A stretch of 64,000 nucleotides of DNA from a virus (taxonomy: Duplodnaviria > Caudoviricetes). The stretch covers positions 32,001 through 96,000 of IMG/VR virus record IMGVR_UViG_3300037361_000044; one strand, given 5' to 3'. Positions 7,094-26,964 of the stretch are shown here, in pieces. Numbering within the stretch: position 1 is the stretch's first letter; each line of letters starts with the position of its first letter. A program made the translations under genes and the position numbers. The notes below the pieces were generated by a model that saw only the letters and a list, made by a program, of their open reading frames with translations, did no database searches and was not told the origin of the DNA.

Positions 7094-7229
7094 GATAGTA
7101 GAGCTTCAGCTACTACAATCCTTTGCTGCGGACCTGGCGCTGCACGAGAAGCTGAGCCCACATGACGCCTTGATAGAAACCGTGAGGTTTGTGAATGACT
7201 TTGAAAAGAAGGCTAAGGCAGAAACGTAA
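7020..7229 (+). CDS. hypothetical protein
   Basis: GGAGG RBS, 69 aa. Confidence 0.5.
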   Translation: MTRGLLHVNAEEPSDVSLALLVEDEIVELQLLQSFAADLALHEKLSPHDALIETVRFVNDFEKKAKAET

Positions 7230-7936
7230 ACGCGCACTACGTAAACTGCGCAAGCGCAGAGCGCTAGTGCAGCGGGAACAGCACCTAGCTCGAGAGACAA
7301 GGATCGCCAGCAGCATGGAGCAGCAGTTGATGGCTGTTCTAGTCATGAAGGCGCAAGCTGCGGCTGCTGAGAAGTTCCGGCAGTCCATGGCGGGTAGGTC
7401 CGTAACGGGCAGATCTATGGGTAAGTCCATGAACTTCGGGCTGCACCTACCGGCAAACAGTCCTTTGGGTACCGAGGAGGCTGAGGAGCTGCTTGCTACA
7501 TGGCTAGGTGCGTTCCCGGAATTAGGTGGGTATCTAAAGGACCCTGCCGCAGCCACCGTAAAGTACGGGCAGGCGGATTGGTCTGCGCTGGAGACTCGCG
7601 TCTTGGATTACGCCAAAAGGGATGCTGCGAGCACGGAAAGGTTGTACAAGCAGACCAATGAAGAGCTGCAAGGCAAAGGCGGGAAAGCACAAGAAGCAGG
7701 GAGACCGTCCTTGTCGGCAGCCATGGCGTGGGCGTACAGCGATATGGCAGGCAAGGAAGTGCGAGCAGGAGATTAGCGAGTACATTCAACGCAAGAACAG
7801 ACCGGCTGCTCCAGCCTTTGAAAAGCTGGCCTTGGCGATGGCCGAGGCGCGTATGGTGCAAGAAATACAACAGACAGAGGATGCGGAATTCCTCAATACT
7901 CTCGCACAGGACTTAGCCAATGTCGTACTTGAATAG
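7195..7936 (+). CDS. mosaic protein with scrambled family A DNA polymerase-like motifs; probable +1 frameshift near 7750
   Basis: TGR, KSMNFG, EAEELLATWLGAFPEL, ADWSALETRVL and DYAKRDA in 7195..7776; coding-like continuation in the next frame to 7936. Confidence 0.45.
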
Positions 7937-8375
7937 CCCAAAAGACCCAATACGCGACGTGCTCAAGGCTATGACAGGAAAAGCTCCACCAGCCTTCGTG
8001 CGCGGCTACACCTGTCACAACCTGCCAGACACCAAGTGGGATGCGTTGCAAAGCTGGGCTGTGAACAATTGCAAACCGTCCTACTTGACGGGCATAGGCC
8101 TTATTGAGGCTGCGCACCAGCAGGTGGATGAGGCTGTCAGTAACGGCAACATCCCGCCACCCGGCTACCCCTGCGGGAACCGCGTGGACTTTGTACTGAA
8201 GCTATTCAGGGCGTTGTCGAAACGGCACGGGGACCTGCTGGTGGAGCTGCGACAGGCCACTATAGAGTTGGCGTACAAGCAGAAGGAGGCAGCAGCCTGT
8301 CCGGTGGAAACCCATACCCGCACCAGGGGTTCGAAAAAGAAGTGGAGGATGCGCGTGTCCTCAACAAGGTCATGA
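7920..8375 (+). CDS. hypothetical protein
   Basis: 151-aa ORF in the cluster. Confidence 0.6.
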   Translation: MSYLNSPKDPIRDVLKAMTGKAPPAFVRGYTCHNLPDTKWDALQSWAVNNCKPSYLTGIGLIEAAHQQVDEAVSNGNIPPPGYPCGNRVDFVLKLFRALSKRHGDLLVELRQATIELAYKQKEAAACPVETHTRTRGSKKKWRMRVSSTRS

Positions 8376-8645: not shown

Positions 8646-8848
8646 AAGAGACCTTCTACGTGACCACGTTCTGCAACCACGCGCACCGGTTGGAAGACGG
8701 CAAGCCCATAGGCCACGAGTGCTATGTATTGCCCACTGCTGCCCTTCACGCTGAGAGGGATGGGAAGCTAGGCCTGGCTGTGGAGCTGCTCGGCAAGTGG
8801 AAGAGGCGGCGAGTACATCGTGGTCTGAAGAGTTGTGCACCCACCTGA
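8642..8848 (+). CDS. small Cys/His protein
   Basis: CNHAH...GHEC, ATGA-coupled. Confidence 0.55.
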   Translation: MKETFYVTTFCNHAHRLEDGKPIGHECYVLPTAALHAERDGKLGLAVELLGKWKRRRVHRGLKSCAPT

Positions 8849-9254
8849 GTACACGCCCTACAGCCGCCAGTTGATCTCGCATGAGCTGGCAGAGCTGCAG
8901 GAAGCCGAGGCAATGGAGCAGGACTTCGTGGACTATATGGAGCGCAAACGGCGCCCTAAAGTCACTGACCCTTTTGTCGGGCAGCTGTGGCGGCCACAGC
9001 CCATGATCATGAGCCAACACGACTACGATGACATCGTGGCGTGGGGTGAATCAATAGAGAAAGAGGAAGCGAGGAAAGAGAAAATGCGCATAGGGAAGTT
9101 CCTTATCATGCAGCAGCCAGTAGTTGGCACTGCACGACCCGTGGGCTCGAACCCGGATGAAACACGCACTTTGCAGCCGTTTGGGTCACGTGCTGCCAGA
9201 AGACTTGACGCAAAGATGCTTCGAGCGAAGGCAAAAAAGGGGAAATGTCGATGA
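8835..9254 (+). CDS. hypothetical protein
   Basis: 139 aa; contains MIMSQHDYDDIVAWG. Confidence 0.55.
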   Translation: MHPPEYTPYSRQLISHELAELQEAEAMEQDFVDYMERKRRPKVTDPFVGQLWRPQPMIMSQHDYDDIVAWGESIEKEEARKEKMRIGKFLIMQQPVVGTARPVGSNPDETRTLQPFGSRAARRLDAKMLRAKAKKGKCR

Positions 9255-11330: not shown

Positions 11331-11717
11331 ATGACGACCAAGATAAGCTTCGAACCGTGGACGACAGAGATCCCTGACAGCAAGCTGGTGGAGGACCCTG
11401 AGGCCACCATCTACGAACAAGACCCTCGTGTGATTACCAACCACCAACCTGGGCAGTTGCCGGTGCCACCCAATCCCCCACCGCCGGTGGGCTGGGTGTA
11501 CTGGAAGAACCAGCCAGTATCGCACGCAGCAGCGTCATTGGCCAACAGCATGCTGCACGATCCAGGCATGTACCCCATGGGCACCTTCGTACGTATCTCA
11601 GTTGGCGGTGAAATCATTGGCGCGCGTGTGGAGTGGCATGACTTCCAAGGGGCGACTGGGAAGAGGGGCTGCTTCCGTGGTGTGAACCTGCTGAAGAAGG
11701 TGCCTGATGGCGTGTGA
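11331..11717 (+). CDS. hypothetical protein (Pro-rich linker)
   Basis: AGGAG RBS, ATG 11331. Confidence 0.65.
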   Translation: MTTKISFEPWTTEIPDSKLVEDPEATIYEQDPRVITNHQPGQLPVPPNPPPPVGWVYWKNQPVSHAAASLANSMLHDPGMYPMGTFVRISVGGEIIGARVEWHDFQGATGKRGCFRGVNLLKKVPDGV

Positions 11718-12360
11718 CCACTGCAAGACCGCTGAGCGTGAATGCGATTGCGGTGAAGGTCCTTGTCCTGACTGCTACGTCTCCATCTTCGGGGAGGAAG
11801 GACCTACCCCGGAGCAGCGGGCAGAGATCGAAGCCATCAACAAGGATGTGGATGAGTTCCTGGACGCCAACCCAGGGATTGAGCTGCTGCTGAACCAGCC
11901 TGGCGTGTATGTCAGCAGCCACATCATGGAGAGCGTACCTGGCATCCTGGAGGTCACACCTATGCAGTACAGCTTCGAGTCCCCAGTTGAGCACTGGAGC
12001 TCGAGCACACCGAACGTGCAGAACGTGCAGAACGTGCAGAACCCCCAAGGAACACCCACTGGTGAGTCTGAGCTGGTTATGGCCGACGTCTACGGCTCTG
12101 ACGTGCGCCTGCTGCGCAACTGGGACAAGTCCGTGAAAGCAGACGCATCACCATTTGCCGGTCTTGACCTGCCACTACATGACCGCCTCATCCTGCTGAT
12201 ACCCAACCTAGGTGCGTACCCGTCAAGTCCCGCGTTCAAGGAGGCAGTGGAGAGAGAAGCAGGGCCCTGCGATATCAAAGTCATCGGCACTGTTGTGCAG
12301 ATCACACGGCTCACGCCTAATCCAGACGGTACGCACCTGGAGATGCAGATCGAGTATTAG
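11707..12360 (+). CDS. hypothetical protein, N-terminal Cys cluster
   Basis: CDHC..CDC..CPDC; NVQ repeat. Confidence 0.6.
   Translation: MACDHCKTAERECDCGEGPCPDCYVSIFGEEGPTPEQRAEIEAINKDVDEFLDANPGIELLLNQPGVYVSSHIMESVPGILEVTPMQYSFESPVEHWSSSTPNVQNVQNVQNPQGTPTGESELVMADVYGSDVRLLRNWDKSVKADASPFAGLDLPLHDRLILLIPNLGAYPSSPAFKEAVEREAGPCDIKVIGTVVQITRLTPNPDGTHLEMQIEY
12012..12042 (+). repeat. 9-bp tandem repeat (GAACGTGCA)x3.4
   Basis: Directly visible; encodes NVQNVQNVQN. Confidence 0.95.
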
Positions 12361-26225: not shown

Positions 26226-26432
26226 ATGACGCAGCAAGACCGAGCGCTAATAGCCCGGATTGAGCGTATGGGGTACGAGGAGATGGTGCGCGAGCTTCGG
26301 TTCGCGCCCATCGGCGCCCCTATGTTCACGGGAGAAGCCGGGGAGTTCTTCGGCAAAAGGTTGAGGCAACTACAATCCAGCTTGTCAGTTGCCGAGCAAG
26401 TGGCTATTTCAAAGAAGGTCGGGCATGGCTAA
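26226..26432 (+). CDS. conserved phage hypothetical protein
   Basis: YE...RFAPIG.P.F.GE.G...SKKVG motif. Confidence 0.7.
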   Translation: MTQQDRALIARIERMGYEEMVRELRFAPIGAPMFTGEAGEFFGKRLRQLQSSLSVAEQVAISKKVGHG

Positions 26433-26964
26433 GAAGCGCGCACGTGAGGAGCTTTGGGGTTTGACACCTAGTTCTGCCTTTAGTTTGATGCTAATGCTTA
26501 GAGGACCTCGTAGTGGCGCCGATAAGGCCACGCTGACAGAGTTGCATGTGGCTAAGTACATAGTACCGACAGCAAAAGACACGCTGTGGGAGCCCCGCTA
26601 TCGCCTAACCAGTGCGGGTAGGGCTATTTCTAAGGAGTTCAAAAGGAGAGATGCGCAAGAGCGCGTAGACGCAAGGCTTAGGTATCAAGAGCTGCAGAGA
26701 TTAGCGGAGTTGGCGCAAGAACTACGCAGCGTCACCGTAGACGATGAGGAAGACGAGGAAGACTTAGCGGATGAGGGTGAGTATGATCCGGAAGCCGCTA
26801 ACGACTACTACGACGCGGACTGCGGCCGCTGGGTACCTGACGGCCACGAAGTCTGTGACGCTTGCGCGGGCACAGGCACCGTGACATACGACCACGACCT
26901 GGAGGTGGTTTGCATGGAGTGCGATGGGGAAGGCTATATGCCACGTAGAATGGTTGATATATGA
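26425..26964 (+). CDS. protein with DnaJ-type CxxCxGxG zinc finger
   Basis: CDACAGTG...CMECDGEG. Confidence 0.65.
   Translation: MAKKRAREELWGLTPSSAFSLMLMLRGPRSGADKATLTELHVAKYIVPTAKDTLWEPRYRLTSAGRAISKEFKRRDAQERVDARLRYQELQRLAELAQELRSVTVDDEEDEEDLADEGEYDPEAANDYYDADCGRWVPDGHEVCDACAGTGTVTYDHDLEVVCMECDGEGYMPRRMVDI

Follow-up and report, generated by a model that had tools for sequence, protein, structure and literature searches.

Family A DNA polymerases (PolA) recur in tailed phages as complete enzymes, as diverged accessory copies and as short pieces, and polymerase swapping is frequent in these phages (PMC11348598). Among the accessory copies, divPolA1 and divPolA2 of Caudoviricetes are normal-sized proteins with catalytic residues in a palm, and polymerase activity is predicted for them (Yutin et al. 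2024, PMC11348598). The short pieces are represented by PHROG 12116, an 81-position phage family annotated as "DNA polymerase" that consists of short PolA palm pieces running from motif 2 to motif A. We found no description of small PolA relics in the literature; since large polymerase surveys drop fragments under about 200 residues (PMC12926913), small relics maintained by selection would be invisible in what can be searched.

The gene studied here, ORF 7195-7776, lies in a window (the whole 64,000-nucleotide stretch analysed) taken from an IMG/VR virus record of 190,298 bp that is rated complete; it covers bases 32001-96000 of that record. Our favored reading, put forward with modest confidence, is that the gene product is a family A polymerase relic, conserved but without catalytic activity, that is joined to an Arg/Lys-rich helix and has its motifs probably mostly in native order; the relics would form a new small family. 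With family A polymerases (PF00476; Klenow, Bst, Taq and the phage's own PolA) the protein shares the motif A Asp, Leu/Ile-Glu, Arg and Leu, and its family shares a motif B placed after motif A (RR-x2-K ... YG in the relatives) and, in three members (the window ORF, P0003 and the L013 protein, hereafter L013p), the TGR of motif 2. It is, however, about 190 aa long versus about 600 aa or more, it lacks motif C, the thumb, the exonuclease core and the rest of the palm, it carries a new Arg-rich N-terminal helix, and the window copy has lost the O-helix Arg/Lys and Phe. The PHROG 12116 proteins are similar in that they, too, are small phage proteins made up of nothing but an active-site segment of PolA and retained next to a complete polymerase. 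The relic family is longer, adds motif B and the basic helix, and forms a separate family: the PHROG 12116 profile matched only the true PolA genes of phages G000, G001, G002, G004 and G005 (E = 7e-4 to 0.04) and gave no match at E ≤ 10 to segments of ORF 7195-7776 or L013p. Like divPolA1 and divPolA2, the gene is an extra PolA-derived phage gene beside a regular replicative polymerase, in variable non-replication neighborhoods, but unlike them it would, judged from its motif content, be a fragment incapable of catalysis. A further likeness is to the DEDDy 3'-5' exonucleases (PF01612), whose ExoIII pattern Y-x3-D-A-x2-T is invariant in six close homologues; unlike those enzymes, the window protein has no ExoI or ExoII, and an ExoI-like D-x-E-T occurs only in L013p and the L014 protein (L014p).

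The gene is part of a block of genes on one strand, those for NUDIX and DNA ligase among them, and in a relative's locus ThyX and RNase HII lie upstream of it. All motif strings quoted in the original prediction are found in this ORF, in frame 0. A GAGG lies about 8 nt 5' of the ATG at 7195, which we take to be the true start because the Arg/Lys-rich N-terminus is common to all homologues; the public gene call begins at Met41. The layout upstream, in which the last 35 nt of a 69-aa ORF overlap the start of the gene, is repeated on the P0006 contig. By codon usage, frame 0 is favored between about 7200 and about 7680, and between about 7740 and 7830 the signal lies in the +1 frame. A +1 shift near 7750, proposed earlier as appending further sequence to the protein, is unsupported: we reject it because frame 0 is homologous to the relatives up to its stop codon, its last residues matching the QVRAG of three of them. 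The +1 frame downstream is probably a separate small gene. In relatives, a 58-aa gene overlaps the end of the orthologue by 23 nt, although the window frame has no significant sequence similarity to it. Inspection of 7658 to 7832 revealed no ATG, GTG or TTG for the +1 frame, and an ATT overlapping the TAG of ORF 7195-7776 occupies the position of the GTG start of the small gene in L003; the frame could use a non-canonical start or termination-reinitiation. Just downstream lies a 151-aa gene (7920-8375) that has no family match and is 62-64% identical in L003, far above the conservation of ORF 7195-7776. A candidate motif C in this 151-aa gene was rejected, as its QVDE reads QVEE in the 62%-identical orthologue and the ORF has no PolA score.

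Table 1. Coordinates of ORF 7195-7776, its parts and the adjoining reading frames (positions in the window).
Feature	Position	Strand	Basis
Gene of the putative PolA-relic protein, 193 aa	7195..7776	+	ORF list and sequence; conserved N-terminus; dN/dS 0.23-0.39
Upstream ORF, 69 aa	7020..7229	+	35-nt overlap with start of ORF 7195-7776; coding potential in own frame
Downstream small reading frame, +1 relative to ORF 7195-7776	7772..7936	+	Coding potential after ~7740
Arg/Lys-rich N-terminal helix (predicted), residues 1-66, with conserved Met-Glu (41-42)	7195..7392	+	AF2; invariant residues; fold search
TGR (71-73) then K-x3-F-G, residues 69-86	7399..7452	+	Degenerate PolA motif 2 (TGR...NLQNIP) or motif-B-like O-helix start
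Helix with EEAE...W...FP, residues 93-114	7471..7536	+	Like post-motif-B helices, or EEG-R-x-IR-x-AF before motif A
Motif A equivalent, residues 126-138	7570..7608	+	D128, L132, E133, R135 and L137 invariant in six close homologues
Helix after motif A, Y139-x3-D143-x3-T147, residues 138-151	7606..7647	+	Also fits ExoIII of DEDDy exonuclease
Degenerate motif B (O-helix), residues 167-186	7693..7752	+	Top hhalign hit; alignment to L013p motif B

An exhaustive phmmer search against 1.8 billion representatives returned three homologues, 166-176 aa long, at E = 1e-12 to 3.5e-5, along with one repeat-protein false positive. Two more, of 186 and 189 aa, came from a profile search, giving five close homologues (P0002, P0003, P0005, P0006 and P0007). 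One is encoded on a contig of 189,951 bp whose gene order is that of the window, and synteny around the gene is kept in L003 and on the P0006 contig. The family profile also weakly matches two phages (L013 and L014) with about 65% identity in PolA. Both matches fall precisely into the syntenic slot, whose flanking genes match at E = 1e-35 and 3e-10; these two distant positional orthologues include L013p, which aligns to the family profile in hhalign at P = 5.8e-5. All family members occur in metagenomic relatives of the 190-kb phage. Searches of INPHARED phage DNA and proteins found no relatives of ORF 7195-7776, a pattern scan of IMG/VR with profile A2 gave no matches, and orthologues of the neighboring gene were not found in more distant PolA-related phages with the query used.

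ORF 7195-7776 is a real, functional gene under purifying selection and one of the two fastest-evolving genes in its neighborhood, as follows from its dN/dS and its syntenic homologues. P0002 versus P0007 gave a Nei-Gojobori dN/dS of 0.23 (at dS 0.9), and comparisons with the window copy gave 0.35-0.39; among the seven further genes compared, six had values of 0.06-0.25, the seventh being ORF 11707-12360 at 0.33. Identity to the L003 orthologue was 38%, against 56-80% for the neighbors (ORF 11707-12360, at 33%, again excepted), and between the window and L003 its dN was the highest of the eight genes compared. The reading frame is intact, at 166-197 aa, in seven of eight lineages that share 30-40% identity, with the start, the basic helix and the C-terminus all conserved and with R5, R11, R13, Q26, Q29, R36, A38 and E42 invariant in the N-terminal part. 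The copy in phage G001 (L014:1201-1884, minus strand) keeps an ExoI-like motif and motif A, and on sequence grounds it is probably truncated after motif A. A gene read in another frame, with a basic N-terminus of its own, overlaps it 3' of that motif.

Likeness to PolA is clear for the family and faint for the window sequence taken singly, so that the resemblance to family A polymerase motifs first noticed in the window protein is borne out at the profile level, well above controls, while the sequence alone scores at noise level. Pfam gave no match for the window ORF and five neighbors (none at E ≤ 10 for the window ORF); its match to PHROG 17, "DNA polymerase", had E = 0.034, its best BLAST match among 38 PolAs a shuffle P of 0.055, and a PolA HMM run over the 1329 ORFs of the genome ranked it 11th, at E = 4.2. 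A comparison with the phage's own PolA, suggested at the outset, was significant by Smith-Waterman (shuffle P = 0.003), but in yet another register. At the DNA level no similarity to that polymerase gene was found, and recent copying or gene conversion from it was accordingly rejected. In PDB profile searches, by contrast with these single-sequence scores, all 55 matches of profile A1 were of Pol I type (best E = 0.0037), as were 42 of the 43 matches of A2. Against a PolA profile built from 38 sequences, hhalign gave the family three local hits (motif A to the C-terminal motif B, motif B with the following helix, and ExoIII) with scores of 26-35, compared with 13 ± 2.3 (maximum 27.8) for column shuffles and 13-19 for both reversed profiles and the profiles of 11 neighbor genes, the last two kinds of control never exceeding 19.3.

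Individual members add matches that all fall under curated thresholds. Pfam DNA_pol_A matched L013p (E = 0.0055, 16.1 bits) and P0003 (E = 0.011, 15.2 bits; residues 7-162 on profile positions 68-223), both co-linearly, and the PF00476 gathering threshold of 34.3 bits was reached neither by these two nor by the window ORF. DNA_pol_A_exo1 (PF01612) scored 13.9-15.1 bits in P0005 and P0007 (threshold 23.6), PHROG 17 matched three of eight family members, and three PolA models were among the NCBIfam matches of L013p, at E of only about 0.2. The clearest member is L013p itself, in whose 197 residues an ExoI-like D-x-E-T, a near-consensus motif 2 (10 of 15 positions), motif A and a complete O-helix follow one another in native order. 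The residues that align to the motif A metal-binding Asp and following Glu of PolA, D128 and E133, are invariant in A2; a profile of six homologues did not recover the TGR motif. Taken together, these comparisons support, at the sequence level, a derivation of ORF 7195-7776 from family A polymerase sequence.

How the pieces are ordered is less straightforward. The original prediction saw TGR, B, A and ExoIII, an order that is incomplete, as a degenerate motif B after motif A had been overlooked. In the window this motif retains only R170, Y181 and G186, with Gly, Leu and Met at the positions of the first Arg, the Lys and the Phe; the corresponding stretch of the relatives reads RRQ-x-K ... Y-G, with RR, K and YG kept in P0002, P0003 and P0006, and L013p has the complete R-x3-K-x3-F-x3-YG. 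The top hhalign hit covers motif A through to this C-terminal motif B co-linearly, and the alignment to L013p (P = 5.8e-5) pairs the family's C-terminal stretch with a clean motif B. TGR occupies the same site in the window ORF, P0003 and L013p, and in L013p that site holds a full motif 2. Because the C-terminal motif B aligns co-linearly and TGR recurs at its site, we read TGR, A and B as standing in native order; the best BLAST alignments to bacterial Pol I are likewise co-linear for the window ORF, P0003, P0007, L013p and L014p.

Two off-diagonal likenesses do not fit this order, and they are real at the profile level. Residues 73-116 resemble motif B with its following helices (hhalign of family positions 63-107 against motif B and what follows, P = 0.002-0.012), and residues 134-162 resemble ExoIII (the third hhalign hit, P = 0.006-0.013). 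Both have co-linear alternatives: BLAST aligns residues 69-86 co-linearly to bacterial Pol I, residues 93-114 lie within the top hit of a two-sequence profile and in the BLAST alignment, and the ExoIII-like residues also align to the helix after motif A. In global hhalign of the six-member profile, a template in the order first read scored 57 and a B-A-B permutation 49, versus 18-23 for the native order, the permuted templates having been picked after the matches had been seen. Since the permuted template fits much better, a purely co-linear reading needs two coincidental off-diagonal similarities. There are shared patterns from which such similarities could arise: motif 2 and motif B both have an Arg followed by Asn and a hydrophobic residue seven and eight positions on, and a common Glu-rich, aliphatic, aromatic, Pro pattern marks both the linker that leads into motif A and the helices behind motif B. 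For P0005 the co-linear and the off-diagonal reading score an equal 23.5 bits, and hhalign of the two halves of the protein against each other (P = 0.17) detected no internal duplication. As the native TGR-to-A linker and the post-A helix share a residue skeleton with the motifs in question, the motif-B-like and ExoIII-like extras are, from sequence, most simply explained as by-products of a relic that is itself co-linear. TGR, A and the C-terminal B are thus in PolA order, the off-diagonal elements of the claimed scrambling stand as likenesses, and scrambling as such is unproven; we consider native order about twice as likely as a real rearrangement.

Such a rearrangement, in which PolA pieces would have been shuffled or partly duplicated and then kept by selection, perhaps as a surface mimic or decoy for a host factor such as a defence sensor, is the most serious competing explanation, and we give it a minor but real chance. 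It would account directly for three separate local profile likenesses, two of them off the main diagonal and all of them higher than every control, for the high scores of both permuted templates, for the match of P0005 to the motif B region of bacterial Pol I (L035; 30% identity over 43 columns with one two-residue gap) and for the exact fit of the family-invariant Y139, D143 and T147 to ExoIII, and fast evolution would suit a role in conflict. Against this, the templates were chosen post hoc, a repeat is undetectable, and the same ExoIII-like residues are the ones that align to the post-A helix. Co-linear BLAST alignments are equal or better for the window ORF, P0003, P0007 and L013p, and the TGR at the disputed site in two family members and in the outgroup L013p, with its full motif 2, indicates that the site was ancestrally motif 2. 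The most specific form of the idea, a selected collage of B plus helices, A fused to ExoIII, and B again, which partial duplication or recombination would have assembled and which would mimic polymerase surfaces, appears unlikely; if true, such a protein could, for instance, titrate a defence sensor of the host, or a partner in the replisome, that recognises polymerases of family A.

Noise-level single-sequence scores, database E-values that all lie between 0.004 and 0.2, all-helical models without a match to the polymerase fold and residues that admit several mutually exclusive alignments could also be expected of an unrelated small helical phage protein whose conserved residues merely look like PolA. 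We regard such a chance resemblance as improbable, since independent members match only PolA-related models (in Pfam, PHROGs, NCBIfam and the PDB) and do so via different segments, since the neighbor-gene and reversed profiles stay at or below 19.3 where the family reaches 26-35, and since L013p combines the ExoI-like motif, motif 2, motif A and the complete motif B in native order. Least credible, to the point of being very improbable, is a functionless, decaying pseudogene of a displaced polymerase. The frequency of polymerase swapping in tailed phages, the seemingly truncated and overlapped copy of G001 and the high dN between the window and L003 would fit decay, whereas the intact frame in seven of eight lineages, the dN/dS of 0.23-0.39 and the conserved start, basic helix and C-terminus do not.

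Under the reading that we prefer, a conserved and mostly co-linear relic, the protein would consist of a helix of about 65 residues, rich in Arg and Lys, fused to a shrunken and strongly diverged palm/fingers stretch in which motif 2 (TGR), motif A and motif B (the O-helix) follow one another before the protein ends. It would have arisen from a polymerase gene cut down by large deletions, a course suggested by the L013 orthologue, in which an ExoI-like motif is still followed by TGR, A and B as in a native polymerase. The residues of PolA motifs that are invariant in the family (D128, L132, E133, R135, L137, R170 and Y181, in addition to Y139, D143 and T147) are those invariant in PolA, and thus we posit that an ancestral surface or local fold is still in use. 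Nucleotide binding can be dismissed as the common function, because the O-helix Arg/Lys pair has been lost in the window phage. The basic helix would most likely bind nucleic acid, as its predicted length and charge suggest, and the polymerase-derived part could present surfaces that contact the primer terminus or nucleotide, or a polymerase-like docking surface; the protein might thereby modulate or compete with a family A polymerase, either host Pol I or the phage's own, or with a partner of it. Our best guess is that it binds, non-enzymatically, either primer ends or a partner of a polymerase, and a mimic that titrates a polymerase-sensing host factor, which would fit the fast evolution, is possible.

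AF2 places a helix over residues 3-66 (pLDDT 85-95 for the first 40 residues) followed by low-confidence helices (pTM 0.29), and the fold matches of residues 1-66 are to coiled coils or single helices only. Models of the window family and of L013p are all-helical and of low confidence (pTM 0.26-0.29); fold searches with them (Foldseek, VIA-align) returned only coiled coils and generic helices, and the ESM Atlas nothing beyond chance level. Models of this quality neither support nor exclude a palm/fingers-like arrangement.

The earlier statement that the protein cannot be a polymerase holds: motif C, thumb and exonuclease core are all lacking, and the chain stops directly behind motif B. Motif C is absent from every member, all of which end 10-25 residues past motif B. 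The genome encodes one intact PolA frame of 702 codons with all motifs (G000:C1:~119.5-121.6 kb). Beyond this frame the PolA HMM found no other PolA pieces among the genome's ORFs, which argues against a split polymerase. The family shows that selection can maintain in a phage, beside an intact polymerase, a protein that has kept residues lining the polymerase active site and yet is unable to polymerise. Were relics of this kind to act on polymerases, on primer ends or on host proteins that sense polymerases, they would constitute a new class of small regulators or counter-defence proteins of phages; as no more than structural remnants with an unrelated use, they would still document the recycling of replication genes.

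Two other ORFs were considered as PolA-like and rejected. ORF 26389-26964, in front of the ligase gene, scored at noise level with the PolA HMM. ORF 11707-12360 also scored as noise versus PolA, and its PolA-like snippets are missing from the L003 orthologue; it is the other fast-evolving gene of the block (33% identity), a Cys-rich protein of 217 aa in which those snippets surround a 9-bp tandem repeat that encodes Asn-Val-Gln three times. Between ExoII and ExoIII, the exonuclease domain of the phage's own PolA (G000; L001, L002, L050) has an insertion about 35 residues long that is rich in Cys (four to five of them); this insertion is conserved and common to related phages (A3), and it may be a zinc-binding module. 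In phage G002 the PolA match (L010:1501-3645) contains two in-frame stops, and in phage G003 (L012:1501-4269) it is about 270 residues longer than in relatives, so these polymerase genes may be split or insert-bearing.

A last observation concerns a short motif, Ala-x-x-Met-Glu-x-Ala-Leu, that recurs near the N-terminus of nearly every consecutive small gene of the clusters at L013:1-2100 and L014:1-2500 (minus strand), several copies following a Lys/Arg-rich stretch, against a chance expectation of about 0.04 matches per 3 kb. It could serve as a leader common to these proteins, as a processing site or as a helix that binds a partner. In the window, a version of it occurs only in ORF 7195 (residues 39-45; 7315-7335) and in ORF 8835-9254 (8910-8930).
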